A DNA stretch of 27,610 bases from a virus (Duplodnaviria > Heunggongvirae > Uroviricota > Caudoviricetes), in IMG/VR virus record IMGVR_UViG_2529292919_000027, one strand, 5' to 3'. The number at the start of each line of letters is the position of its first letter. Within the stretch, counting starts at the first letter, position 1. The notes beneath the pieces were generated by a model. The model did not search any database. It was given only the letters and a program-made list of their open reading frames with translations, and was not told where the DNA came from. This document shows, piece after piece, positions 6,663 through 22,283 of this stretch. The position numbers were made by a program, and so were the translations under genes.

Positions 6663-7316
6663 TCAAAAATCCATTATTACTTGTTTGACAAGACCAACTA
6701 TTCTGCAGTTCTCACCGCATTCAATAGTTTTATAGTTAGGATTTAGTGGGACGAGATACCTGTTCGGCCAGTCCTCAACAAATTTTTTGAGTGTCGCTTC
6801 TTGCCCACCATTGATATGGGCAACAACGATTTTTCCGTTAATACACTCTGTATCAATAATATCTGGCTCTACGATAACGATAGAACCTTCTGGTATCGAT
6901 GGTGAGCCGAGGGGATTGGTCATTGAATCACCACGGACCCGTAGTGCAAATGCCATTTCTGATACAAGGGCGGTAGTATAAACCCACTCTTCAGCATCTT
7001 CTTTCCTGACACCAGGCTCCGTCATTGTCCATGAACCCGCCTGAACCCACGAGATTAGGGGGACTTTTTTAACTGCGAATATTTCAGGTTTTAGATTTAT
7101 CTTTGGTTCAGGCGAGCCTTTTCCGCTAACAAGCCACAGAGGATCGCATTTAAGTGCGTTGGCTAGGGCTTGAAGGTTGGCTCCATTTGGTTGGTAGTCG
7201 TCCTTTTCCCATCCAGTAACCGTGACACGGTTCACACCAGTCAAATCAGCCAGTGCTTGTTGTGTCAGGTTCAGTTCTTTTCGCCTTTGGCGAATACGAT
7301 CACTCATGTTCATCAT
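6663..7316 (-). CDS. cI: CI-like repressor (HTH_XRE + S24 LexA-like peptidase domain)
   Basis: N-terminal HTH (LNLTQQALADLTGVNRVTVTGWE), C-terminal GDSM serine and downstream Lys motifs; divergent from cro. Confidence 0.85.
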   Translation of the reverse strand: MMNMSDRIRQRRKELNLTQQALADLTGVNRVTVTGWEKDDYQPNGANLQALANALKCDPLWLVSGKGSPEPKINLKPEIFAVKKVPLISWVQAGSWTMTEPGVRKEDAEEWVYTTALVSEMAFALRVRGDSMTNPLGSPSIPEGSIVIVEPDIIDTECINGKIVVAHINGGQEATLKKFVEDWPNRYLVPLNPNYKTIECGENCRIVGLVKQVIMDF

Positions 7317-7636: not shown

Positions 7637-8221
7637 GTGGGTAAAGAACCTGAATGGAAAGTTGATAAACAACCAGCATGGCTGGTGGCAGCAATACGAA
7701 GAACGATTGCTGATTTACCTCATGGCTATGAGGAAGCAGCAGAAATTCTTGGTTTGTATAAATCTGATGATATCACCCCAGCAAAAGATCAATTGCATAA
7801 CAGACTGCGTAGCGGTGGGGATCAAATTTTTCCACTTGAGTGGGCCATGGTTTTACAGGATGCCAGTGGTACCAGGCATGTAACAGATGCAATAGCCCGT
7901 CGTAGTAATGGGGTGTTTGTGCCGCTGGTGGTCATTGATGACATTGACAATGGTGACATTAATCAGCGGCTGATGGAGTCAATAGAATGGATTGGCAAGC
8001 ATTCCCAGTACTTACGCAAGGCAACTGCTGATGGAGTTATTGACCAGGCTGAGCGTGAGCAAATCGAAGAGAACAGCTACCAAGTAATGGCGAAGTGGCA
8101 GGAGCATTTAACACTGTTATTTCGTGTTTTTTGTGCGCCGGAAAAGAGTAACGCCCGCGAGTGTGCAGCTCCGGGCGTCGTGGCGTCGATTGCTTCTGGT
8201 TGTGGAGAAACTAACGCATGA
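7637..8221 (+). CDS. CII-like phage regulatory protein (CP76 family-like)
   Basis: GTG start after cro; 194 aa; position and size match CII/CP76-type regulators; family assignment from memory. Confidence 0.45.
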   Translation: MGKEPEWKVDKQPAWLVAAIRRTIADLPHGYEEAAEILGLYKSDDITPAKDQLHNRLRSGGDQIFPLEWAMVLQDASGTRHVTDAIARRSNGVFVPLVVIDDIDNGDINQRLMESIEWIGKHSQYLRKATADGVIDQAEREQIEENSYQVMAKWQEHLTLLFRVFCAPEKSNARECAAPGVVASIASGCGETNA

Positions 8222-9378
8222 ATAGTTTAACGGCAAATAACCGTTTGTCGCAACAGCTGGTGGTCAGCGTCGCTGAACACCTGTTGTTACGGCATGAATG
8301 CAGATTACCAAATCACCTGGCTGTAAGTAACCACAGAGAACTTTACCTGACTGTGGGGGGCGAGTTGTGCAGGAACTTAACCGCTGGTTTCGTGACGGAA
8401 GAGGGCTTTATGTCCATGTTATTCGTTGGGAGCCAGAAACACAGCGCGTTATCTATCTTCGCAAAGACTACCCGCATGAGTGCTTTAGTCCTTTGTGGAA
8501 ATTCAGGCGTGATTTTGTTGAGTGTGAAGGACCACCAGCATATTGATTCTGCAATTCCGGGACGTTACACTGCTCAGGCACCTTATAAAGCGGGTGCCGG
8601 GATTGGCGTCCTGAAATTGTCAACGGCGATGTATGACGCGCCAGCGTCTTTTTTATCGTCCGCATTTGCTCACATCCAGATTATGGTGGGCTGGGCGGGG
8701 GCACCGAAAGGTGCGCCGGTCTCCGTTGACGCCGGTTACGCCAACCCCGTCCAGTTCACCACCAGTGAAATTGGCGTTTCCGGTGGTGGAAGTTTTTCAC
8801 TGTCAACGGAGGCTGCCATCATGGCTACGATCCCAGCCCTCACTCAACCTGAAATCACCATTGACAACGGCCAGGCCGTTACCACTTCTTTGGCTGTTGC
8901 CAACTTCTTCTCCAAGCGTCACGACGATGTGCTGAAAAAGATCCGCACTCTGGATTGTTCCCCAGAGTTTTGTGCCCGCAATTTTGCGGAGACATCGATT
9001 TCGGTAAATCAACCGAACGGTGGTACACGCAAGCTCCCTTGCTATCAAATCACACGAGACGGTTTTGCGTTTCTTGCTATGGGTTTCACGGGTAAACGTG
9101 CTGCCCGGTTCAAAGAGGCATACATAAATGCCTTTAACCAGATGGAGAAACAGCTTTCAAAGCCCGCTGTACCGAGCGACGTTGCACATAACGCCAGCGT
9201 TCTCTGTTCCTACATTTCATCAATTCATCAGGTCTGGCTGCAGCAGCTTTATCCTATGTTGGCAAAAGCCGAATCTCCGCTGGCTGTTAGCTTATATGAC
9301 TATATTAATGATGCTTCGGCGCTGGCCAGTCTCATAAATTTGTCGCTGAACCCTTCAGAGGTAAGGGGGCGCAAATGA
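8218..9378 (+). CDS. Rha-family regulatory protein with about 200-aa N-terminal extension
   Basis: Rha-type motif block (NGQAVTTSLAVANFFSKRHDDVLKKIR...FKEAYINAFNQME) begins at internal ATG 8821 (GGAGG RBS); frame open from ATG 8218 which overlaps upstream stop. Confidence 0.55.
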   Translation: MNSLTANNRLSQQLVVSVAEHLLLRHECRLPNHLAVSNHRELYLTVGGELCRNLTAGFVTEEGFMSMLFVGSQKHSALSIFAKTTRMSALVLCGNSGVILLSVKDHQHIDSAIPGRYTAQAPYKAGAGIGVLKLSTAMYDAPASFLSSAFAHIQIMVGWAGAPKGAPVSVDAGYANPVQFTTSEIGVSGGGSFSLSTEAAIMATIPALTQPEITIDNGQAVTTSLAVANFFSKRHDDVLKKIRTLDCSPEFCARNFAETSISVNQPNGGTRKLPCYQITRDGFAFLAMGFTGKRAARFKEAYINAFNQMEKQLSKPAVPSDVAHNASVLCSYISSIHQVWLQQLYPMLAKAESPLAVSLYDYINDASALASLINLSLNPSEVRGRK

Positions 9379-9599
9379 TCCGGAATATTTTCAAACGGTT
9401 TACCAATCATACTTTCCGTTGTCCTCGTCCGGGTCAGTGGTACACCACGCCTGCTGGGCATGTTCTACGTGTTAGCCTGGTTGACCGTGAATGTCAGAAG
9501 GTGGTTTGTGAACCGCTGGGCCGTAATTACCGCGTCAGTATGCCGCTTATAGCCTTTTGCTCCGGAAAAATGTTTAAGCGTCTGGGAGGTGTGGCGTGA
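9375..9599 (+). CDS. hypothetical small phage protein
   Basis: 74-aa ORF with ATGA overlap to upstream gene. Confidence 0.4.
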   Translation: MIRNIFKRFTNHTFRCPRPGQWYTTPAGHVLRVSLVDRECQKVVCEPLGRNYRVSMPLIAFCSGKMFKRLGGVA

Positions 9600-9895
9600 A
9601 CTGTTTTCAGTTTGTGTGCGGATGTGCTTTCGATAACCCGATTCAGCGCCTAATTATGTTGCGTGTTTTGATGTCGGGTTCTTCAGACGGTGAAGGCGAG
9701 AGAGTTATTGATCATCAGGTGCTTGCTGATTTCTGCTGTTGTTCTAAGCAAGCGATATTCAGGGAAACCCTGGCACTGGAAAGAGCTGGTTATCTTCATA
9801 TCCGAAAAATTGCAACGCTTACTATTGATGCAAAAGCCAGACTACAACCTGCGCGTGGCTACACAATTCTCATGCTGCGGAAGGAGGTTGTATGA
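9596..9895 (+). CDS. hypothetical protein, possible winged-helix DNA-binding
   Basis: 99-aa ORF, GTG start overlapping upstream stop, coupled to replication gene. Confidence 0.4.
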   Translation: MNCFQFVCGCAFDNPIQRLIMLRVLMSGSSDGEGERVIDHQVLADFCCCSKQAIFRETLALERAGYLHIRKIATLTIDAKARLQPARGYTILMLRKEVV

Positions 9896-10875
9896 GCCGT
9901 TACGCCCCCACACCGGAAGTTATGGCTATTGGTCAAATTAATATTTCCGGCAATGTTACACCTGCGACCTGGTGGAAATATATTCGACTACCCAGTGGGC
10001 GTCCGGATGCGACGGCTATCGCTCTGCTTTCAGAGATCGTTTACTGGTACCGCCCGACAGAGGTCAGGGATGAGCACACCGGAGCGTTGCTGGGATATCG
10101 CAAGCGTTTTCAGGGCGACAAACTGCAAAGAAGCTACCAGGCGTTTGCTGAGCAGTTTGGTTTCGGGAAAAGGGAAACCGCAGATGCGCTGAAGCGTCTG
10201 CGCGATGCAGGGTTTATTACTCTGGATTTACGCACGGTGGAAATGCTCGATGGGGTGAAATGCAGCAATATTTTGTTTGTCGGGATCAACCCACAGGCAA
10301 TTGCGGCCATCACCACACCTTCTTCTGTTTCGCCAGAAAGTAACAGCAATAATGCAATCAGCGATACAGCTATTACGTTAAAACGGAACACCCCCCGACG
10401 TCATAACGGAACAGGGGATACGCCGAATGTTGATACAAATACAGAGATTACTACAGAGATTACAACGGAGACTAAAAACACTATTGGCGCATCCGCTGAC
10501 GCGTCTGCACCAGCGCGTTCTGCCAGACAGGAATATTCACCGGAATTTGAACAGGCCTGGCAGGAATATCCCAAACGTGCTGGTGGTAATTCAAAATCCG
10601 CCGCTTTTAAAGCCTGGAAAGCCCGAATCAGGGAAGGTGTGACACCCGAAACCATGCTCGACGGTGTGAAACGCTATGCCGCCTGGGTGCGTGTCTCTGG
10701 AAATACCGGTACCCAGTTCGTGAAGCAGGCGTCGACGTTCTTTGGTCCGGATCGTCATTTCGAAGAATCCTGGGAAGTTCCTGCGGTATCTGCAGCCAGA
10801 CGCGAGGACCCGTACTTCAAAGCCAGTTACGACAACGTGGACTACAGCCAGATCCCGGAAGGATTCAGGGGGTGA
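9892..10875 (+). CDS. replication initiation/replisome organiser protein (Phg_2220_C-type C-terminus)
   Basis: C-terminal EFEQAWQEYPKRAGGNSKSAAFKAWKARI... matches the conserved phage replication C-terminus; internal tandem repeat in linker. Confidence 0.65.
   Translation: MSRYAPTPEVMAIGQINISGNVTPATWWKYIRLPSGRPDATAIALLSEIVYWYRPTEVRDEHTGALLGYRKRFQGDKLQRSYQAFAEQFGFGKRETADALKRLRDAGFITLDLRTVEMLDGVKCSNILFVGINPQAIAAITTPSSVSPESNSNNAISDTAITLKRNTPRRHNGTGDTPNVDTNTEITTEITTETKNTIGASADASAPARSARQEYSPEFEQAWQEYPKRAGGNSKSAAFKAWKARIREGVTPETMLDGVKRYAAWVRVSGNTGTQFVKQASTFFGPDRHFEESWEVPAVSAARREDPYFKASYDNVDYSQIPEGFRG
10441..10476. repeat. three tandem 12-bp repeats inside the replication gene (candidate ori iterons)
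   Basis: acagagattact / acagagattaca / acggagactaaa, encoding TEITTEITTETK in the inter-domain linker. Confidence 0.4.
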
Positions 10876-10877
10876 TC

Positions 10878-10970
10878 ATGAGTCTTTTGAATGAAGTTCA
10901 GAAATTCATTGAAGCCCATCCGGGGTGTACTTCCGGAGACATTGCGGATGCTTTTTACGTGGGGGCTTAA
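10878..10970 (+). CDS. possible 30-aa ORF coupled to the methyltransferase
   Basis: ATG after AGGGGG, stop TAA overlapping MTase ATG (taATG); too short to be certain. Confidence 0.2.
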   Translation: MSLLNEVQKFIEAHPGCTSGDIADAFYVGA

Positions 10971-11623
10971 TGAGTAATAAATATTGCCAGGCGCTGGTAG
11001 AACTGCGGAACAAACCAGCCCATGAACTGAAGGAAGTGGGCGATCAGTGGCGCACGCCGGACAACATTTTCTGGGGAATTAACACCTTGTTTGGTCCGTT
11101 TGTTCTGGATCTGTTCACTGACGGTGATAACGCCAAATGTGCCGCGTATTACACGGCGGAAGACAACGCGCTGGCGCATGACTGGTCAGAACGTCTTGCG
11201 GAGCTTAAAGGTGCTGCCTTTGGTAATCCCCCATACAGCCGCGCCAGTCAGCATGAGGGGCAATACATCACCGGCATGCGTTACATCATGAAACATGCCA
11301 GTGCCATGCGTGATAAGGGCGGGCGCTATGTTTTCCTGATCAAAGCGGCCACCAGCGAAGTGTGGTGGCCGGAAGATGCAGATCATATTGCTTTTATTCG
11401 CGGGCGTATTGGTTTTGAACTGCCAGCCTGGTTTATCCCGAAAGACGAAAAGCAGGTGCCAACAGGTGCTTTCTTCGCTGGTGCTATTGCTGTTTTCGAC
11501 AAGACCTGGAAGGGAGCGGCAATCAGCTACATCGGGCGCGATGAACTTGAGGCATGTGGTGAGGCGTTTCTGGCGCAGGTTCGCCAGCAGGCGGAAAAAC
11601 TGGTCAGGGAGATGGCGGCATGA
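10970..11623 (+). CDS. phage N6-adenine DNA methyltransferase (Dam-like, orphan)
   Basis: DQWRTPD and FGNPPYS motifs; no adjacent restriction endonuclease. Confidence 0.75.
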   Translation: MSNKYCQALVELRNKPAHELKEVGDQWRTPDNIFWGINTLFGPFVLDLFTDGDNAKCAAYYTAEDNALAHDWSERLAELKGAAFGNPPYSRASQHEGQYITGMRYIMKHASAMRDKGGRYVFLIKAATSEVWWPEDADHIAFIRGRIGFELPAWFIPKDEKQVPTGAFFAGAIAVFDKTWKGAAISYIGRDELEACGEAFLAQVRQQAEKLVREMAA

Positions 11624-11946
11624 CGACATTAACTCAATGCCAGCAGCAGGTGCTGGATATGCTGATTTCTTATCAGAAAGAACGTGGCTTCCCGCCAACC
11701 AATCAGGAGGTGGCAACCATGCTGGGATACCGTTCGGTGAATGCAGCGGTGGAGCATCTTCGCGCACTGGAGAAAAAAGGTGTCATCACGATAAAGCGTG
11801 GCGTGGCCCGGGGTATCACTCTTCATACCGCGGTGAAGGACGACGACAGCGAGGCGGTCGGGATTATCCGCGCCCTGCTTGCCGGTGAGGCAAACGCCAG
11901 GCTGCGTGCAGCCCACTGGTTACATGAGAGGGGCCTGAAAGTATGA
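11620..11946 (+). CDS. LexA N-terminal DNA-binding domain protein (no peptidase domain)
   Basis: Sequence closely parallels LexA residues 1-70 (QQ.VLD.I......G.PPT..E.A..LG.RS.NAA.EHL.AL..KGVI); 108 aa, lacks S24 domain. Confidence 0.6.
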   Translation: MTTLTQCQQQVLDMLISYQKERGFPPTNQEVATMLGYRSVNAAVEHLRALEKKGVITIKRGVARGITLHTAVKDDDSEAVGIIRALLAGEANARLRAAHWLHERGLKV

Positions 11947-12332
11947 AGCTAATACTGCCTTTTCCGCCCAGCGTGAACACGTACTGGCGACACCCCAACA
12001 AAGGGGCGTTTGCTGGTAAGAGCCTGATAAGCGCGGCGGGGCGAAAATTTCAGAGCGCGGCGTGCGCAGCAATAGTTGAACAGTTACGTCGTCTGCCGAA
12101 ACCAACGTCGGCACCTGCTTCAGTGGAGATCGTGTTGTTTCCTCCGGATAACAGGATCCGCGATCTGGACAACTATAACAAGGCGCTGTTTGACGCCCTG
12201 ACCCACGCGGGGGTGTGGGAAGACGACAGTCAGGTGAAAAGAATGCTGGTGGAGTGGGGACCGGTTATCCCGGAAGGGAAGGTCGAGATCACTATCAGTA
12301 AGTACGAGAAAACGGCGGGTGCAGCTGCCTGA
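11943..12332 (+). CDS. rusA: RusA Holliday junction resolvase
   Basis: Recalled RusA family sequence (MKLILPFPPSVNTYWR...DLDNYNKALFDALTHAGVWEDD). Confidence 0.85.
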   Translation: MKLILPFPPSVNTYWRHPNKGAFAGKSLISAAGRKFQSAACAAIVEQLRRLPKPTSAPASVEIVLFPPDNRIRDLDNYNKALFDALTHAGVWEDDSQVKRMLVEWGPVIPEGKVEITISKYEKTAGAAA

Positions 12333-12351
12333 TTAAGAGGAGAAACGAAGT

Positions 12352-13161
12352 ATGAATAATCTGATGGTCATTGATGGTATTGAAGTTCGTCGTGATGCTT
12401 ATGGGCGTTACAGCCTGAACGATCTGCATCGCGCAGCAGTAGCATCTGGTGCAAATGCCAGAACCAAGGAGCCAGGAAAGTTTCTTTCCAGCCAACAAAC
12501 TGTTGAGCTTGTTCATGAATTAACCAACACCCAGAATTTGGGTGTTGACCCGGTGAGTGTGATTCATGGGGGAAATGAACGGGGAACGTATGTCTGTAAG
12601 GAACTGGTGTATGCCTATGCAATGTGGATCAGCCCGTCATTCCATCTGAAGGTGATCCGTACTTTCGATATGGTAACCAGCGCGCCGGAAAAGTTATCCG
12701 GACAGGCTGCTGACAAGATGCAGGCTGGCGTGATCCTGCTGGACTTTATGCGCCGGGAGTTAAATCTGTCTAACTCTTCAGTGCTTGGTGCCTGTCAGAA
12801 ACTCCAGGAGGCTGTTGGCTTACCGAATCTGGCACCGCGCTATGCCATTGATGCTCCTGCTGACGCGCCTGATGGCTCAAGCCGCCCGACACTGTCACTG
12901 AGTGCACTGCTGAAGCAGTATGGTATCCGCCTGACAGCTAATCAGGCATATCACCAGATGGCGAAGCTGGGGATCGTTGAACAACGTGAACGATACAGCC
13001 GTACCGCGATTAACAACATCAAAAAATTCTGGTCGCTGACGGCGAAAGGCTGCATGTTCGGCAAGAACATCACCAGTCCCGCAAATCCGCGCGAGACGCA
13101 GCCGCATTTCTTCGAATCCCGATTCCCTGAGCTGTTAAAGCTACTCGATACCGTTCATTGA
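12352..13161 (+). CDS. KilA-N domain protein
   Basis: N-terminal IDGIEVRRDAYGRYSLNDLHRAA motif characteristic of KilA-N. Confidence 0.65.
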   Translation: MNNLMVIDGIEVRRDAYGRYSLNDLHRAAVASGANARTKEPGKFLSSQQTVELVHELTNTQNLGVDPVSVIHGGNERGTYVCKELVYAYAMWISPSFHLKVIRTFDMVTSAPEKLSGQAADKMQAGVILLDFMRRELNLSNSSVLGACQKLQEAVGLPNLAPRYAIDAPADAPDGSSRPTLSLSALLKQYGIRLTANQAYHQMAKLGIVEQRERYSRTAINNIKKFWSLTAKGCMFGKNITSPANPRETQPHFFESRFPELLKLLDTVH

Positions 13162-13162
13162 G

Positions 13163-14158
13163 GTGACCGTGAGAGCACTACTGACCCCTGAAATTGCCCC
13201 GCGTATGGGGATCGTATTGTTCAGGCCAGGTTCAGAGCTGATGCCCCTGTTTATGCAGGGGCGTGTCCTGCTGGAGCCAGAGCCGGAACGTTATTCATCT
13301 TTCGCCAGTGGTGCCGTTCCGGCGGCATCACAACCGCTGGCGGATGATCCTGCCGTTCGGACCGTGTTCCGCAATGAGGCAGTGATCCGTCGTGCTGGTG
13401 GCGTGGAATGTCTTGAAAGCTGGTTACTTCGTGAAAAAGGTTGCCAGTGGCCTCATTCCGACTGGCACAGCGAGAACATGACCACAATGCGACACACGCC
13501 GGGCGCAATCCGTCTGTGCTGGCACTGCGATAACCAGCTGCGCGATCAGTTCACGGAACGGCTGGAATCAATGGCAACGGATAACTGTACCCGCTGGGTG
13601 TTGTCTGTTGTGCGTCGGGATCTCGGTTTTGATGACAGTCACGTTGTGACAATGCCGGAACTGTGCTGGTGGCTGATTCGTAATGACCTGGCGGATGCCT
13701 TACCGGAAAGTGCAGCCCGTAAGGCACTGAGATTACCGAAGCCTGTTGTGCCGTCTGTCACCCGGGAAAGTGACCTTGTGCCTTCGGTTCCTGCCACCAG
13801 CATCATCCAGGATAAAGCGAAAAAGGTGCTGGCGCTGAAAGTGGATCCGGAGTCGCCGGAGTCTTTTATGTTACGCCCAAAACGTCGCCGCTGGGTTAAT
13901 GAAAAGTACACGCGCTGGGTTAAGACACAGCCGTGTGCATGTTGTGGAAAGCCCGCTGATGATCCCCACCACCTGATAGGCCACGGTCAGTGTGGAATGG
14001 GTACAAAAGCGCATGACCTTTTTGTGTTGCCTTTGTGCAGAAAGCATCACGACGAGCTGCATGCGGATACCGTGGCATTTGAAGAGAAGTATGGCTCTCA
14101 GCTGGAGCTGATATTTCGTTTTATCGATCGTGCGCTGGCAATTGGCGTACTGGCGTAA
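13163..14158 (+). CDS. DUF968 domain protein (YdfU-like)
   Basis: C-terminal CACCGKPADDPHHL...PLCRKHHDELH motif; GTG start. Confidence 0.55.
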   Translation: MTVRALLTPEIAPRMGIVLFRPGSELMPLFMQGRVLLEPEPERYSSFASGAVPAASQPLADDPAVRTVFRNEAVIRRAGGVECLESWLLREKGCQWPHSDWHSENMTTMRHTPGAIRLCWHCDNQLRDQFTERLESMATDNCTRWVLSVVRRDLGFDDSHVVTMPELCWWLIRNDLADALPESAARKALRLPKPVVPSVTRESDLVPSVPATSIIQDKAKKVLALKVDPESPESFMLRPKRRRWVNEKYTRWVKTQPCACCGKPADDPHHLIGHGQCGMGTKAHDLFVLPLCRKHHDELHADTVAFEEKYGSQLELIFRFIDRALAIGVLA

Positions 14159-14171
14159 GTGGAGAACGAGC

Positions 14172-14924
14172 ATGAACCTTGAAGCCTTACCGAAATATTA
14201 CTCCCCGAAATCTCCAAAACTGAGCGATGACGCACCGGCGACAGGCTCTGGTGGTTTAACAATTACGGATGTGATGGCTGCGCAGGGGATGGTGCAGTCA
14301 AAAGCACCGCTTGGGTTTGCTTTATTCCTGGCAAAAGTTGGTGTTCAGGATCCTCAGTTTGCGATTGAAGGTCTGCTCAATTACGCGATGGCACTGGATA
14401 ACCCGACATTGAATAAATTGAGTGAAGAAACCCGGCTACAGATCATTCCTTACCTTGTGAATTTTGCCTTTGCTGATTATTCCAGGTCTGCGGCAAGTAA
14501 GGCTCGCTGTGAGCATTGTGCTGGTACTGGATTTCATAATGTATTGCGCGAGGTGGTGAAACACTCCAGAAGCGGGGAATCTGTTATTAAGGAAGAGTGG
14601 GTGAAGGAACTATGTCAGCATTGTCATGGTAAGGGAGAAGTCAGCACAGCATGCAGAGGGTGCAAGGGTAAAGGTATTGTCCTGGATGAAAAAAGAACCC
14701 GGCTTCATGGCACGCCTGTTTATAAGGTTTGTGGGCGTTGCAATGGAAACCGGTTTAGCCGTTTACCAACCACACTGGCGCGGCTTCATGTCCAGAAGCT
14801 GGTACCAGACCTGACGGATTATCAGTGGTACAAAGGATATGCAGATGTCATTGATAAACTGGTTACAAAGTGCTGGCAGGAAGAAGCATATGCAGAGATA
14901 CAATTGAGAAAGGTGACAAGATAA
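14172..14924 (+). CDS. antitermination protein Q-like (long Q family)
   Basis: Multiple CxxC zinc motifs (CEHCAGTG, CQHCHGKG, CRGCKGKG, CGRCNGNR); last nin-region gene before terminators and late genes. Confidence 0.6.
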   Translation: MNLEALPKYYSPKSPKLSDDAPATGSGGLTITDVMAAQGMVQSKAPLGFALFLAKVGVQDPQFAIEGLLNYAMALDNPTLNKLSEETRLQIIPYLVNFAFADYSRSAASKARCEHCAGTGFHNVLREVVKHSRSGESVIKEEWVKELCQHCHGKGEVSTACRGCKGKGIVLDEKRTRLHGTPVYKVCGRCNGNRFSRLPTTLARLHVQKLVPDLTDYQWYKGYADVIDKLVTKCWQEEAYAEIQLRKVTR

Positions 14925-14955
14925 ATGGTTTTCGCCGAAGATGACGACATGATGC

Positions 14956-14984
14956 TTGCATTTTTCAAAAAATATGGATAAGAT
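14956..14984 (+). promoter_or_regulatory. candidate late promoter (pR'-like)
   Basis: TTGCAT - 17 nt - TAAGAT upstream of the first terminator; weak consensus match, position-based. Confidence 0.2.
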
Positions 14985-15029
14985 TTTCCCAACGATGGGC
15001 TTTGTATGTCTACCGTTGATAAGATTTAA

Positions 15030-15058
15030 GAACCCGCCGATGCGCGGGTTTTTTTGTA
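15030..15058 (+). terminator. intrinsic terminator (tR'-like) downstream of Q
   Basis: cccgc cgatgc gcggg hairpin followed by T8. Confidence 0.6.
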
Positions 15059-15234
15059 CCCAGAATCCTGTGAGCTATACGGAAAGTACACAGAAAGGAA
15101 GGTGCGACCACAATTAATAACAAAATCTTAAAAATTGCACATGGCACTATTAGTTTTCTAAATATTGTGTATTTTTTGTATTGCAGGATGACCCTGTAAC
15201 GAAGTTTGCGTAACAGCATTTTGCTCTACGAGTT

Positions 15235-15266
15235 TGCCAGCCTCCCCCAGTGGCTGGCTTTTTTAT
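15235..15266 (+). terminator. second intrinsic terminator downstream of Q
   Basis: gccagcc ... ggctggc stem followed by T6. Confidence 0.55.
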
Positions 15267-15386
15267 GTCTGTAGCGTCAAAGCAGCAATGTCGCTGGGGC
15301 GTCGTGCAATTGGCGTTGAGCTGGAGACTGAACGTTTTGAGCAGACGGTCAGGGAAGTTCAGGATTTAGTCAGTCAGAACGGATGA
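15267..15386 (+). pseudogene. 3' remnant of a DNA methyltransferase gene
   Basis: Frame reads ...KAAMSLGRRAIGVELETERFEQTVREVQDLV, resembling MTase C-terminal motif; no 5' part or start present. Confidence 0.3.
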
Positions 15387-15426
15387 TATTGCAGAATTAG
15401 TTACGTACCGTTATTATCCTGCGCCC

Positions 15427-15502
15427 GGCCCTTTAGCTCAGTGGTGAGAGCGAGCGACTCATAATCGCCAGGTCGCTGGTTCAAATCCAGCAAGGGCCAC
15501 CA
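15427..15502 (+). tRNA. tRNA-Ile2 (anticodon CAU; Met-type anticodon, ileX/ileZ-like)
   Basis: Cloverleaf by eye: acceptor ggccctt/aagggcc, D-arm gctcagtggtgagagc, anticodon loop ctCATaa, T-arm ggttcaaatcc, CCA end; near-identical to E. coli ileX as recalled. Confidence 0.8.
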
Positions 15503-16312: not shown

Positions 16313-16442
16313 ATCCGCGCCACGCCCGGCGCATATCAACCACAGAGCCTTTCGGGGGTGAGCTTACGGAGTGGTCAGTGTGACTTTCTCTGTGGGCAGA
16401 TCGCTCCCGGGCGTTGGCTCACCCACCCAAAGGAACGTCACG

Positions 16443-16874
16443 ATGTTTGGTATTTTTGGTAAAAAAGCCCGCCGAGCGGCAGTGGAAATTAAAAAGTTTG
16501 AGAAACGTGATCTGGCACAGGCGGTTATTAATGCTGCCTATCTGGTGGCCTATGCAGATGGTGAATGTGAGGCTTCAGAGAAAGCGAAGATCGAGCAGAT
16601 CTTGCGTAACCAGCCTGCGTTGTCCGCGTTTACGTCAGAAATTAATGCGATTAGCGCAACCATTATCGGTCAGCTGGATACGAACTTTAAAATTGGTCGT
16701 CGAGCGGCATTGCGTGAAATTGAAGATGTGAAACACGATACGCGTGAAGCGGAAGATGTGCTGGATGTGGCGGTGGCCATTGCGGAGGCAGACGGCGAAA
16801 TTGAGCCGGAAGAGCGCAAGGTGCTGGAAGAGATTGCCGGTGTTCTGGGTCTTCGTCTGGAGAATCACCAGTGA
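16443..16874 (+). CDS. TerB-family (tellurite-resistance TerB-like) protein
   Basis: Two TerB-type repeats (AAYLVAYADGECEASEKAKIEQIL and VLDVAVAIAEADGEIEPEERKVLEEIAGVLG) parallel to E. coli TerB; ATG with AAGGA RBS. Confidence 0.6.
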   Translation: MFGIFGKKARRAAVEIKKFEKRDLAQAVINAAYLVAYADGECEASEKAKIEQILRNQPALSAFTSEINAISATIIGQLDTNFKIGRRAALREIEDVKHDTREAEDVLDVAVAIAEADGEIEPEERKVLEEIAGVLGLRLENHQ

Positions 16875-17352: not shown

Positions 17353-19206
17353 ATGTCGATTAAACATTATGATGTTGTCAGGGCGGCGTCGCCGTCAGAC
17401 CTTGCGGAAAAGCTGACACACAAACTGAAAGAGGGCTGGCAGCCGTTTGGTAGTCCGGTGGCCATAACCCCTTATACCCTGATGCAGGCGATTACAGCAG
17501 AAGGTGATGTGGTGGTCAGTGGTGCAACTGAGCCGGATTGGTACTACGTCATCGTACTGGCCGGGCAGTCCAATGCCATGGCTTACGGTGAAGGGCTTCC
17601 GCTGCCGGATTCATACGATGCTCCGGATCCGCGCATTAAACAGCTGGCGCGCCGCAGTACAGTTACGCCGGGTGGGGCTGCATGCAGATATAACGATATT
17701 ATTCCGGCCGACCACTGCCTGCATGATGTGCAGGATATGAGTACGCTGAATCATCCGAAGGCAGACCTGAGCAAAGGGCAGTACGGCTGTGTCGGCCAGG
17801 GCTTACATATTGCCAAAAAACTGCTCCCGTATATCCCGAATAACGCGGGGATCCTGCTGGTACCATGCTGTCGTGGTGGTTCGGCATTCACCCAGGGCGC
17901 GGAGGGGACATTCAGTGCGGACACGGGGGCCAGCCAGGATTCGGCACGCTGGGGTGTGGGTAAACCGTTATATCAGGACCTGATTGCGCGCACTAAAGCT
18001 GCATTACAGAAGAACCCGAAAAATGTGTTGCTGGCGGTGTGCTGGATGCAGGGAGAGTTTGACATGAGCGCCGCCACCCACGCACAGCAACCTGCGCTGT
18101 TTACAGCCATGCTGACACAGTTTCGTGCTGACCTCTCCGTGTTTAACGCGCAGTGCCATGGTGGCAGTGCTGCAGATGTGCCGTGGATTTGTGGTGACAC
18201 GACGTATTACTGGAAAAATACATACGCTACCCAGTACGACACCGTGTACGGCGGGTATAAAAACAGGGAGAGTGAGGGCGTTTATTTTGTGCCCTTCATG
18301 ACAGACGGTAACGGCGTCAATACCGCCACTAACGCACCGGCAGAAGATCCGGATATTCCGGCATCAGGATATTACGGTGCGGCATCGAGAACGAATGGAA
18401 ACCAGGTATCATCAAACCGCCCGACACATTTCAGTTCATGGGCGCGCAGGAGCATTATTCCGGATCGTATGGCAACCGCTATTCTGAACGCAGCCGGGCG
18501 CACCTCAGCTTTCATCAGTGGTAAGGCACCGGAAATCAAACCCTCGCCCGGCGGCAACACGCCATCGGGGCCGTCTGAAGATGCATCCGTACGCACAATC
18601 TCCCTGTTGCCGACAGCCGGAGAGGCTGCTGCGCAGGGCTGGACCATTAAGGACGGCGGAATTCAGTTGTCGGGTGGTGTATTTAAGATCGCCAAGCAGA
18701 GCAATAAAACCTGGTCCCTGATGCATCCGGTGGATGACGCAGTCTCCCTGCTGACACGGGGTGGCAGACTGAGCTGTAAGTTTCGACTGTCAGGCGCACT
18801 GACCAACAACCAGTTCGGCCTGGGAATTTATCTGTATACCGATGTAGCGTTACCTGACGTCGTGGCGATGACCGGGACTGGTAACCCGTTCCTGATGTCG
18901 TTCTTCACCCAGACCACAGACGGCAAACTGAATCTGATGCATCACAAGAAAGCAGGAAACACAAAGTTGGGCGAGTTCGGGAATTACAGTAATGACTGGC
19001 AGACGCTGGAACTGGTGTTCACCGCCGGCAGTGCCACGGTTACTCCGAAACTGAATGGAGTGGCTGGCCCGGCATTCCAGGTCATAAAAGACAGTCTGAC
19101 ACTGGGGCTGAATGCGCTGACGCTGACGGATATTACCAAAAATGCAGCGTATGGCGTTGAGATAGAAAGTCTGGTGCTGGAGATAAATGCACCGGCATCA
19201 TCATAA
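17353..19206 (+). CDS. nanS: prophage sialate O-acetylesterase NanS-p-like (DUF1737 + SGNH/SASA esterase)
   Basis: N-terminal DUF1737-like segment and VIVLAGQSNAMAYG esterase motif; position matches nanS-p of Stx phages. Confidence 0.8.
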   Translation: MSIKHYDVVRAASPSDLAEKLTHKLKEGWQPFGSPVAITPYTLMQAITAEGDVVVSGATEPDWYYVIVLAGQSNAMAYGEGLPLPDSYDAPDPRIKQLARRSTVTPGGAACRYNDIIPADHCLHDVQDMSTLNHPKADLSKGQYGCVGQGLHIAKKLLPYIPNNAGILLVPCCRGGSAFTQGAEGTFSADTGASQDSARWGVGKPLYQDLIARTKAALQKNPKNVLLAVCWMQGEFDMSAATHAQQPALFTAMLTQFRADLSVFNAQCHGGSAADVPWICGDTTYYWKNTYATQYDTVYGGYKNRESEGVYFVPFMTDGNGVNTATNAPAEDPDIPASGYYGAASRTNGNQVSSNRPTHFSSWARRSIIPDRMATAILNAAGRTSAFISGKAPEIKPSPGGNTPSGPSEDASVRTISLLPTAGEAAAQGWTIKDGGIQLSGGVFKIAKQSNKTWSLMHPVDDAVSLLTRGGRLSCKFRLSGALTNNQFGLGIYLYTDVALPDVVAMTGTGNPFLMSFFTQTTDGKLNLMHHKKAGNTKLGEFGNYSNDWQTLELVFTAGSATVTPKLNGVAGPAFQVIKDSLTLGLNALTLTDITKNAAYGVEIESLVLEINAPASS

Positions 19207-19668: not shown

Positions 19669-20010
19669 ATGTCCATCATTTTTAATGGACACTATCGTAT
19701 GAAACACCGGACCTGGATCACTGAAGCTTTACGTCTTCACTTTGAAGAACATTTACCCCGGGTTGTGGCCGGGCGTCGCCTGGGTGTACCAAAATCAACA
19801 GTTTGTAGTATGTTCGTGCGCTTTCGGAGAGCTGGCCTTTCGTGGCCTTTGCCCGCAGGCATGTCGGAGCAGGAACTTGATGCCTGCCTTTACGGACAAT
19901 TTTCCACGGTACCAGTCGTACGTCCTGAAAGCACCGTTATATCCGAAGCCCCCGTGGTAAAAAACGTCCCCGGCGGCCCAACTTCCCTTATGAGTTTAAA
20001 ATCGCCTTAG
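19669..20010 (+). CDS. IS-encoded HTH ORF upstream of tnpA (possibly the frameshifted N-terminal part of tnpA)
   Basis: 113-aa ORF with HTH-like RRLGVPKSTV; ends where the tnpA frame opens. Confidence 0.4.
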   Translation: MSIIFNGHYRMKHRTWITEALRLHFEEHLPRVVAGRRLGVPKSTVCSMFVRFRRAGLSWPLPAGMSEQELDACLYGQFSTVPVVRPESTVISEAPVVKNVPGGPTSLMSLKSP

Positions 20011-20345
20011 TGGAGCAGTCACTGCAGCCCGGAGCCTGTGTGGCGCAGATCGCCCGGGAAAACGGAATCAACGATAACCTGCTCTTCAACTGGCGCCATC
20101 AATACCGGAAAGGTGGCCTGCTGCCTTCCGGAAAAAATATGCCGGCACTGCTTCCCGTGACGTTAACGCCGGAGCCGGATAATAAAATCCCGGCCCCCGC
20201 ACAGGAACCAGAGCAGATAAATACACCGTCCGACAGTCTGTGTTGTGAGCTGGTTCTGCCGGCCGGAACTCTCAGGCTTAAAGGTAAACTGACGCCGGCG
20301 TTATTACAGACACTTATCCGCGAAATAAAAGGGAGCAGCCACTGA
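20010..20345 (+). CDS. tnpA: IS66-family accessory protein TnpA (orfA), start uncertain
   Basis: PRRPNFPYEFK...VAQIARENGINDNLLFNWRHQYRKG HTH motif; frame open from 19929 without ATG; ORF track start is GTG at 20010. Confidence 0.6.
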   Translation: MEQSLQPGACVAQIARENGINDNLLFNWRHQYRKGGLLPSGKNMPALLPVTLTPEPDNKIPAPAQEPEQINTPSDSLCCELVLPAGTLRLKGKLTPALLQTLIREIKGSSH

Positions 20346-20692
20346 TGATATCTCTCCCTGCAGGTTCGCGTATCTGGCTGGTTGCAGGTATCACCGATAT
20401 GCGAAATGGCTTTAACGGCCTGGCATCAAAAGTTCAGAACGTCCTGAAGGATGACCCGTTCTCCGGACACCTGTTCATCTTCCGCGGACGCCGGGGTGAC
20501 CAGATAAAAGTGTTGTGGGCTGACAGTGACGGACTGTGCCTCTTCACCAAACGCCTGGAGCGGGGCCGCTTCGTCTGGCCAGTCACCCGTGACGGCAAGG
20601 TGCACCTTACTCCGGCTCAGTTATCCATGCTTCTTGAAGGTATCAACTGGAAGCACCCGAAACGAACGGAACGCGCTGGAATCCGCATATAA
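20345..20692 (+). CDS. tnpB: IS66-family TnpB (Orf2)
   Basis: Recalled IS66 Orf2 sequence (MISLPAGSRIWLVAGITDMR...HLFIFRGRRGD.IKVLWAD.DGLCLFTKRLE). Confidence 0.85.
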   Translation: MISLPAGSRIWLVAGITDMRNGFNGLASKVQNVLKDDPFSGHLFIFRGRRGDQIKVLWADSDGLCLFTKRLERGRFVWPVTRDGKVHLTPAQLSMLLEGINWKHPKRTERAGIRI

Positions 20693-20711
20693 CCCGTTGT
20701 AAAGTGAGGAT

Positions 20712-22283
20712 ATGGACACCTCACTTGCTCATGAGAACGCCCGCCTGCGGGCACTGTTGCAGACGCAACAGGACACCATCCGCCAGATGGCTGAATACAA
20801 CCGCCTGCTCTCACAGCGGGTGGCGGCTTATGCTTCCGAAATCAACCGGCTGAAGGCGCTGGTTGCGAAACTGCAACGTATGCAGTTCGGTAAAAGCTCA
20901 GAAAAACTTCGTGCAAAAACCGAACGGCAGATACAGGAAGCACAGGAGCGAATCAGCGCACTTCAGGAAGAAATGGCGGAAACGCTGGGTGAGCAATATG
21001 ACCCGGTACTGCCATCCGCCCTGCGCCAGTCTTCAGCCCGTAAACCGTTACCGGCCTCACTTCCCCGTGAAACCCGGGTTATCCGGCCGGAAGAGGAATG
21101 CTGTCCTGCCTGTGGTGGTGAACTCAGTTCTCTGGGATGTGATGTGTCAGAGCAACTGGAGCTTATCAGCAGCGCCTTTAAGGTTATCGAAACACAACGT
21201 CCGAAACAGGCCTGTTGCCGGTGCGACCATATCGTGCAGGCACCAGTACCTTCAAAACCCATTGCACGCAGTTATGCCGGAGCGGGGCTTCTGGCCCATG
21301 TTGTCACCGGGAAATATGCAGACCATCTGCCGTTATACCGCCAGTCAGAAATATACCGTCGTCAGGGAGTGGAGCTGAGCCGTGCCACACTGGGGCGCTG
21401 GACAGGTGCTGTTGCTGAACTGCTGGAGCCGCTGTATGACGTCCTGCGCCAGTATGTGCTGATGCCCGGTAAAGTCCATGCTGATGATATCCCCGTCCCG
21501 GTCCAGGAGCCGGGCAGCGGTAAAACCCGGACAGCCCGGCTGTGGGTCTACGTCCGTGATGACCGTAACGCCGGTTCACAGATGCCCCCGGCGGTCTGGT
21601 TCGCGTACAGTCCGGACCGGAAAGGTATCCATCCACAAAATCACCTGGCCGGTTACAGCGGTGTGCTTCAGGCCGATGCTTACGGTGGTTACCGGGCGTT
21701 ATACGAATCCGGCAGAATAACGGAAGCCGCGTGTATGGCTCATGCCCGGAGAAAAATCCACGATGTGCATGCAAGAGCGCCCACCTACATCACCACGGAA
21801 GCCCTGCAGCGTATCGGTGAACTGTATGCCATCGAGGCAGAGGTCCGGGGCTGTTCAGCAGAACAGCGTCTGGCGGCAAGAAAAGCCAGAGCCGCGCCAC
21901 TGATGCAGTCACTGTATGACTGGATACAGCAACAGATGAAAACACTGTCGCGTCACTCAGATACGGCAAAAGCGTTCGCATACCTGCTGAAACAGTGGGA
22001 TGCACTGAACGTGTACTGCAGTAATGGCTGGGTGGAAATCGACAACAACATCGCAGAGAACGCCTTACGGGGAGTGGCCGTAGGCCGGAAAAACTGGATG
22101 TTCGCGGGTTCCGACAGCGGTGGTGAACATGCGGCGGTGTTGTACTCGCTGATCGGCACATGCCGTCTGAACAATGTGGAGCCAGAAAAGTGGCTGCGTT
22201 ACGTCATTGAACATATCCAGGACTGGCCGGCAAACCGGGTACGCGATCTGTTGCCCTGGAAAGTTGATCTGAGCTCTCAGTAA
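20712..22283 (+). CDS. tnpC: IS66-family transposase TnpC
   Basis: N-terminal leucine zipper, CPACGGEL zinc motif, DDE region; 523 aa. Confidence 0.85.

Follow-up and report, generated by a model that had tools for sequence, protein, structure and literature searches.

A LexA DNA-binding domain without its protease domain in the early operon of a lambdoid prophage: a candidate RecA-proof surrogate LexA

The DNA considered here, referred to as the window, is a 27,610-nucleotide stretch of a virus of the class Caudoviricetes (IMG/VR record IMGVR_UViG_2529292919_000027), and at positions 11620 to 11946 it encodes a 108-amino-acid product that is confirmed as a LexA DNA-binding domain without the S24 peptidase domain. 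This LexA-like protein carries a conserved two-helix tail instead of the C-terminal domain of LexA, and its gene lies in the rightward early operon of a lambdoid prophage, directly upstream of rusA. The reading that we favour, tentatively and with less than even confidence, is that the protein acts as a RecA-proof surrogate LexA, which would re-repress SOS boxes during lytic growth. The gene itself is not a new discovery; it is already known and annotated, and it is very common. What is new here is the selected tail, the pairing with rusA, the position in the operon, the pattern of DNA-contact residues and the SOS boxes in sibling phages.

A LexA head with a selected tail

The gene and its parts are as follows, with the basis of each assignment in brackets.
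11620..11946, + strand: LexA-like gene, 108 amino acids, PHROG 362, 'LexA family transcriptional regulator' (open reading frame, Pfam, PHROG)
11620..11823, + strand: LexA-type winged helix-turn-helix, codons 1-68 (gapless alignment to LexA 2-70; model against 3jso_B at 1.5 Å)
11734..11775, + strand: recognition helix, codons 39-52, SVNAAVEHLRALEK, for which LexA has SPNAAEEHLKALAR (alignment to LexA)
11842..11925, + strand: conserved two-helix tail, codons 75-102, with helices at 75-87 and 93-102 (AlphaFold2; predicted local distance difference test, pLDDT, of 83-84 for the block)

The open reading frame begins with ATG, with GGAG 8 nt upstream of it. Residues 1-65 match the full 65-position Pfam profile LexA_DNA_bind (PF01726; E 2.9e-19, 69 bits against a cutoff of 23.7). 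When the protein was compared with the PDB by phmmer, the top matches were the DNA-binding domain of E. coli LexA (1lea, E 6e-16) and full-length LexA (about 1e-15), residues 2-70 falling without a gap on residues 2-70 of E. coli LexA, and BLASTP against E. coli LexA gave 43% identity over 91 residues (E 1e-21). An AlphaFold model made from 11 family sequences (mean pLDDT 75.6) predicts helices at residues 6-22, 28-35 and 40-52 and a beta hairpin at 56-68, followed by a low-confidence linker (69-74) and then the two helices of the tail. The best Foldseek match for this model is LexA in its complex with DNA (3jso_B; root-mean-square deviation 1.5 Å over 68 columns, 50% identity). These results, which go far beyond what chance could produce, bear out an earlier note on this DNA, which had claimed that the protein parallels the LexA N-terminal winged helix nearly residue for residue and stops before the peptidase domain.

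No Peptidase_S24 match was found in the 108-amino-acid protein with Pfam, and the chain simply stops at residue 108. Furthermore, the NCBIfam lexA equivalog TIGR00498 is matched over positions 1-91 of 203 at 70.7 bits, which is under its cutoff of 110.95. Lacking an S24 domain and a conserved scissile bond, and scoring too low for the equivalog, the protein, judged from its sequence, is not a LexA orthologue. In LexA, the C-terminal domain holds the functions of dimerisation and self-cleavage and the interface with RecA* (PMC3159453). Since the S24 domain is wholly absent, RecA* would not be able to inactivate the LexA-like protein, and the expectation of the earlier note that the protein escapes RecA-driven cleavage thus agrees with what is found. 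Residues 79-90 are weakly similar to LexA residues 75-86, the linker and cleavage-site region (phmmer), and the form of the protein represented by phage SfV (the SfV type) has 'AG' at residues 88-89; this dipeptide lies inside a predicted helix and is not kept in the wider family. A role in trans-cleavage or as a decoy through 'LLAGE', which is like the 'VAAGE' of LexA, was considered and rejected for those two reasons.

The whole protein is covered by a match to PHROG 362 ('transcriptional repressor'; residues 1-108 against positions 1-106 of a 106-position profile, E 4.2e-59). Near-identical DNA is present in 50 phage records, including SfV, in which it is orf42 ('unknown'), SfIV, mEp460, and phages converting for Shiga toxin (Stx) 2 or 2c; a protein-level search of the same phage collection adds SfII and cdtI, together with weaker partial matches in phages of Edwardsiella, Hafnia and Proteus. 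The PHROG 362 members from SfV (orf42), SfII, SfIV, mEp460, cdtI and the Stx2a and Stx2c phages are 95-100% identical to the window protein, and so belong to the same family. The window gene also shares the hallmarks of that family, namely a winged helix-turn-helix with a two-helix tail and a place in a lambdoid nin-type region with rusA on one side and a methyltransferase or PerC gene on the other. Among complete E. coli genomes, 2233 of 5426 (41%) have the gene, an identical (100%) copy being annotated there, and the name given to it by the Prokaryotic Genome Annotation Pipeline is 'LexA family transcriptional regulator'. Records KF030445, LR595862 and AB285204 are among those that label the 108-amino-acid protein 'SOS-response repressor and protease LexA' or 'RecA-mediated autopeptidase'; such labels are wrong because the peptidase domain is missing. 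With no more than a marginal winged-helix match from PADLOC (CARF3, E 3.6e-4), the protein does not belong to a known defence system. No functional study of the LexA-like protein was found in the literature, in which only work on gp6 of phage GIL01 and general LexA papers turned up.

A profile search of 1.8 billion representative sequences gave 11,443 matches, which are mainly true LexA. About 12 of the proteins found, 105-165 amino acids long and 40-49% identical to the window protein, have the same winged helix followed by two helices, and all of the named divergent members come from Enterobacteriaceae (Cronobacter, Kosakonia, Enterobacter, Cedecea, Klebsiella, Salmonella and Citrobacter). 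In an alignment of 13 sequences whose members are 40-66% identical to the window protein, Ala97 and Leu101 of the tail are invariant and Gly105 is nearly so (at least 90%). In a sister clade of 67 alleles, codons 1-70 have a ratio of nonsynonymous to synonymous substitution (dN/dS) of 0.21, and the tail has one of 0.20. Because the tail is constrained to the same degree as the N-terminal domain, it represents a selected module and not random read-through, and the 38-residue two-helix tail is a putative dimerisation or partner-binding module in place of the S24 domain.

The same data speak to the idea that the gene is what remains, without function, of a captured lexA. The protein does look like a truncated LexA, with its weak similarity reaching into the linker and cleavage-site region. 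However, 246 of 252 loci have an intact SfV-type gene, domain and tail alike show a dN/dS of about 0.2, the same architecture and neighbours recur across clades that are 40-49% identical, and the gene is found in a large fraction of E. coli genomes. A remnant is hardly credible as an explanation.

Position in the early operon

The genes that define the setting of the LexA-like gene are the following.
6663..7316, - strand: cI-like repressor, HTH_3 (PF01381) plus Peptidase_S24 (PF00717) (Pfam), which marks where the rightward early operon begins
10970..11623, + strand: Dam-type N6-adenine methyltransferase (PF05869, E 6.8e-45), whose stop codon (TGA) shares the sequence ATGA with the start codon of the LexA-like gene
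11943..12332, + strand: RusA Holliday-junction resolvase (PF05866, E 6e-15), whose start codon (ATG) and the stop codon (TGA) of the LexA-like gene overlap
12352..13161, + strand: KilA-N protein (Pfam)
13163..14158, + strand: DUF968/HNH Orf-like protein (Pfam)
14130..14924, + strand: Q antiterminator (Pfam)

This is the gene set of a lambdoid prophage, which runs from the cI-like repressor through a CII-like gene, an Ash/Rha protein and open reading frames of the replication region to the methyltransferase and onward, and the operon around the LexA-like gene is nearly devoid of intergenic space. A promoter scan of positions 9500-15500 found promoter-like sites no more often than in shuffled sequence, and none 5' of the LexA-like gene. 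In addition, where siblings have PerC in place of the methyltransferase, the point at which homology breaks is precisely the start codon of the LexA-like gene, with the overlap retained. Given the start/stop overlaps, this break in homology and the lack of a promoter, the gene would be a delayed-early gene of the rightward operon, and from this arrangement we infer that it is expressed after induction or infection and not in the quiescent lysogen. Because the window prophage carries a cI of the S24 type, its induction would coincide with the destruction of LexA.

Such an expression pattern does not fit well with the first of two ideas proposed in the earlier note, namely constitutive occupancy of SOS boxes by the protein, which would have to be in the lysogen; the other is that the protein ties up LexA in inactive heterodimers. 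Part of the first idea stands: binding to a box is plausible from the sequence, with four of five DNA contacts retained in a recognition helix that is LexA-like, and low read-through expression in lysogens is conceivable. It is the word 'constitutive' that lacks support, since the gene has no promoter of its own, starts within the stop codon of its upstream neighbour at a boundary where homology breaks, and lies in a lytic operon downstream of the repressed early promoter region. The second idea is not supported either, because LexA dimerises through its C-terminal domain, which is missing here (PMC3159453). Thus, the proposal as a whole is very improbable.

The surroundings of the gene are strongly conserved. 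rusA is directly downstream in 166 of 166 evaluable loci, which represent three clades that are 40-49% identical, and an adenine methyltransferase gene is upstream in 124 of these, with PerC instead in 22. In the divergent loci L003 and L083, the order is replication protein, PerC, adenine methyltransferase, LexA-like protein, RusA, KilA-N/ANT, DUF968 and Q. The slot 5' of the LexA-like gene (window 10970-11623; L003 5088-5777; L083 5119-5988) is occupied by methyltransferases of Pfam families Dam (PF05869), MT-A70 (PF05063) and D12 (PF02086); three unrelated families in one slot in three clades represent non-orthologous replacement at a fixed position. Upstream of the window methyltransferase gene, the 94-bp gap that separates it from an open reading frame of the replication region (10876-10969) contains a 13-nt inverted repeat at 10887-10913 (TTGAATGAAGTTC / GAAATTCATTGAA), and where the window has this gap, L001 and other siblings carry a gene for PerC (yfdN). 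An inverted-repeat scan around the LexA-like gene found nothing else of note.

With rusA as a constant, overlapping neighbour and a methyltransferase gene as a frequent one, it could be argued that the protein is a DNA-binding accessory of the recombination/replication module, for example a partner of RusA or a factor that acts together with the adenine methyltransferase. The neighbours are indeed recombination genes, and in PMC4118853 the DUF968 product is called an Orf-family/HNH protein. However, the modular gene order of lambdoid phages can keep neighbours together without any functional link. The association is also looser when viewed from other genes of the region: rusA is present in 77 of 79 loci centred on the DUF968 gene and the LexA-like gene in 70 of them, some loci having rusA alone. 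In phages 82 and DLP12, too, rusA is present without the LexA-like gene. Finally, PerC takes the place of the methyltransferase in the 22 loci mentioned above, and the sequence of the LexA-like protein gives no hint of junction binding. An accessory role is consequently improbable.

DNA contacts and SOS boxes

Helix III of E. coli LexA contacts DNA through Ser39, Asn41, Ala42, Glu44 and Glu45 (PMC3091678). Four of these five residues (Ser39, Asn41, Ala42 and Glu45) are retained in the window protein, as is Arg64-Gly65 of the wing, while Glu44 is replaced by Val; the alignment with LexA, which the earlier note had put forward as one test of its claim, thus gives a result that is favourable except at position 44. 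By inspection, identity to LexA peaks in helix III (12/18) and in the wing (9/15), and is about 40% in helix I. Furthermore, residues 38-48 are invariant among 55 alleles of the SfV type. In LexA-based two-hybrid systems, LexA residues 1-87 repress SOS operators when carried on heterologous dimerisers. It has also been reported that the N-terminal domain of LexA alone keeps some SOS-box binding and repression and that its removal by ClpXP is needed for full SOS induction (PMC10584840). From these comparisons of sequence, it is plausible that the LexA-like protein binds SOS boxes and that its gene is tied to host SOS regulation.

Candidate targets are present in sibling phages. SOS boxes were scored with a position-specific scoring matrix made from E. 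coli boxes, the consensus of which agrees with PMC7556043 and the single scores of which are approximate. In siblings whose gene is 97-100% identical to that of the window, canonical SOS boxes of 21-27 bits are found at three recurrent sites (TACTGTATTTATGAACAGTG, TACTGTAAAAATAAACAGTG and TACTGTTTTTACATACAGTA), and at least one SOS box is present in 54 of 80 loci centred on the LexA-like gene. The first, box (a), is TACTGTATTTATGAACAGTG (22 bits; L001 12765-12784, equivalent to L437 8100-8119), located in the 160-bp intergenic region between rusA and the KilA-N gene. Its position 5' of the KilA-N gene suggests a LexA-gated cassette of the antirepressor type. At the counterpart in the window, 12332-12352, there is a 20-bp gap from which the box is absent, and the N-terminal half of the KilA-N protein differs. 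The second, box (b), reads TACTGTAAAAATAAACAGTG or TACTGTAAATTTAAACAGTA and lies over codons 3-9 (NTVKINS or NTVNLNS) of a gene for an N6-adenine methyltransferase, 1.4-2.1 kb beyond Q; it occurs in many loci (for example, L256 1759-1778 and L083 10990-11009), and its palindrome is retained in divergent homologues in which the spacer varies. This methyltransferase gene is missing from the window. The third, box (c), is a near-perfect match of 25-27 bits inside the gene for a cI-like repressor that has helix-turn-helix and S24 domains, within the linker codons between the two domains (L376 3937-3956; L416 3934-3953; L014 1449-1468). Its CTGT...ACAG arms are constant while the encoded residues vary (TVCKNS, TVYKNS, TVCINS). 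The cI-like gene of the window is of a different immunity type and has no box (c).

Taken together, these results suggest how a surrogate LexA might work. The LexA-like gene would be transcribed and translated within the early rightward operon, which extends from the cI-like repressor region through the replication genes, the methyltransferase, the LexA-like gene and rusA to Q. The two-helix tail would supply the dimerisation that is normally provided by the LexA C-terminal domain, and the dimer would bind LexA-type operators, with their CTGT half-sites. Promoters with SOS boxes would in this way be put back under repression while host LexA is being destroyed, possible targets being the SOS genes of the host and the cassettes under LexA control in sibling phages. 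In a broader version, which is possible although it must be held more guardedly, the surrogate would also silence, in its own prophage or in co-resident ones, the cassettes for antirepressor, methyltransferase and repressor that are gated by LexA, and RusA and the Orf-like protein would replace recombination functions that depend on SOS. The co-translated RusA, together with the Orf-like DUF968 protein, may give the phage recombination functions that are independent of the SOS regulon.

Several findings weigh against the surrogate-LexA reading. First, no SOS box was found in the window with the scoring matrix: the top 20-mer scores 8.6 bits, compared with 13-27 for real E. coli boxes, and the mean maximum in shuffled sequence is 10.9 bits. 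The window is not exceptional in this, as 20 of 57 sibling loci (about a third) also have no SOS box within approximately 10 kb. Conversely, SOS boxes are also present in the few related loci without the LexA-like gene. The gene is found in 57 of 60 loci centred on Q as well as in the 70 DUF968-centred loci, and 28 of 38 loci with box (b) have it, all on the same backbone; co-occurrence of gene and boxes may thus reflect only shared ancestry or a shared backbone. Second, a non-acidic residue at position 44 is a trait of the family, in which Glu44 is never retained, while all of the aligned LexA sequences (five truncated LexA-type sequences and the full-length protein of E. coli) have Glu44-Glu45. 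Of 12 enterobacterial lineages, five have Asp, Thr, Leu, Ile or Gly in place of Glu45 and three or four no longer have Ala42, and Arg7 and Arg28 of LexA are lost in the SfV type. The hosts, as Enterobacteriaceae, have one common SOS box. Since the recognition helix varies although the hosts share this box, the family as a whole is not tied to it. Third, dimerisation through the tail is itself something that we infer. The protein P0086, from a Citrobacter freundii cluster of 12 members, is 66% identical to the window protein, has the same tail and has helix SVNTIAGHL, compared with SVNAAVEHL, at the LexA contact positions; by its sequence, it would be a natural specificity variant.

The earlier note had also reported that no obvious CTGT-N8-ACAG box could be seen in the window. 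In the literal sense, this was not so, as the motif occurs three times (8321, 21851 and 23753), but none of these looks like an SOS box, so that the remark was correct in substance. The matches lie in coding sequence or in an insertion sequence (IS) element and have GC-rich spacers, except that the one at 8321-8336, within the Ash/Rha open reading frame, is the sole literal match with an AT-rich spacer and scores 7.1 bits as an SOS box. That open reading frame (386 amino acids, 8218-9378) joins an Ash domain (residues 117-212) to a Rha regulatory domain (residues 222-311).

The variable helix and the missing box have led to another possibility, in which the protein would repress or activate through a specific phage or host site that is not the host SOS box, its specificity having drifted from the LexA operator. 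There is a precedent in gp6 of phage GIL01, a truncated LexA homologue that acts on a palindrome of its own and activates a late promoter (PMC6182141), and a new dimerisation module could force a different half-site geometry. However, the SfV type invariably has the LexA residues Ser39, Asn41, Ala42 and Glu45. In addition, the operon has very little intergenic space, and no candidate site was found: in a half-site spacing scan, no spacing or orientation of CTGT/ACAG pairs is enriched, and the inverted-repeat scan around the gene gave nothing notable but the palindrome at 10887-10913. An activator of the gp6 type, moreover, would be superfluous because late genes in these phages run on Q antitermination. 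A drifted regulator is the main alternative, although on balance an unlikely one.

If the surrogate-LexA reading is correct, the consequences would extend well beyond this prophage, given that roughly 41% of the complete genomes of E. coli have the gene, as do phages that convert their hosts for Shiga toxin or serotype. The SOS programme would be ended on terms set by the phage, presumably to its benefit, and re-repression would alter the duration of SOS in induced cells and thereby mutagenesis, filamentation, toxin modules and colicins. There could also be cross-talk among co-resident prophages with LexA-gated antirepressors, and possibly an effect on the timing of Stx phages. If another target is bound, then the protein would be one more small regulator of the nin region.

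The remaining features of the window lie beyond Q. An IS66-family element at 19669-22283, between the esterase gene and the late region, may have disrupted the prophage. Its open reading frames are as follows.
19669-20010, 20010-20345 and 20345-20692: small open reading frames of the IS66 element
20712-22283: 523-amino-acid DDE_Tnp_IS66 transposase
Between Q and this element are genes for a TerB-domain protein (167 amino acids, 16371-16874) and for a 617-amino-acid DUF1737/SASA (sialate O-acetylesterase-like)/DUF6645 protein (17353-19206); accessory genes of the TerB and SASA types are typical of lambdoid prophages of the enterohaemorrhagic E. coli type.

Comparison with known systems

A first comparison is with E. 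coli LexA itself, whose N-terminal residues 1-69 (1lea, 3jso) have the same winged-helix fold and about 50% identity within the domain. Ser39, Asn41, Ala42, Glu45, His46, Arg64 and Gly65 are identical in the two proteins. The window protein differs in having Val in place of Pro40 and Glu44, Cys in place of Arg7 and Asn in place of Arg28, and in having gained Lys59 and Arg60 in the wing. More fundamentally, it has neither the S24/dimerisation domain with its Ser119/Lys156 dyad, nor a functional Ala84-Gly85 scissile bond, nor the RecA* interface; instead of a C-terminal domain, it has the 38-residue tail, and it is encoded by a phage, in a lytic operon.

A second comparison is with the fragment of LexA (residues 1-84) that is left after self-cleavage, which is likewise a DNA-binding domain without the C-terminal domain. 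ClpXP recognises this fragment through the new C-terminus, which ends in VAA. The fragment has some SOS-box binding and repression and is cleared by ClpXP (PMC10584840), whereas the phage protein ends in GLKV and has an additional module, and so need not share this instability.

The third is gp6 of GIL01, the nearest analogue that has been characterised, which like the window protein is a LexA DNA-binding domain without a protease, encoded by a temperate phage and made early after SOS induction, a timing that for the window protein is predicted from gene order. The promoters of GIL01 carry boxes for host LexA, and gp6 binds its own palindrome, a site overlapping the -35 region of the late promoter P3, which it activates (PMC6182141). 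In the window, by contrast, inverted-repeat and half-site scans gave no candidate palindrome for an activator of this type, and a gene for the Q antiterminator precedes the late genes. The two proteins also appear to be unrelated beyond their LexA-like nature: gp6 (66 amino acids) gives no BLASTP alignment with the window protein at E <= 100, its helix (SHKTAHRYLMQL) is unlike that of LexA, it has no two-helix tail, and it comes from a tectivirus of a Gram-positive (Bacillus) host. Their sequences thus point to independent origins, the LexA head having been captured by phages at least twice. If the surrogate-LexA reading is correct, the protein described here would be the second independent case, after gp6, in which a phage has captured the LexA DNA-binding head alone.

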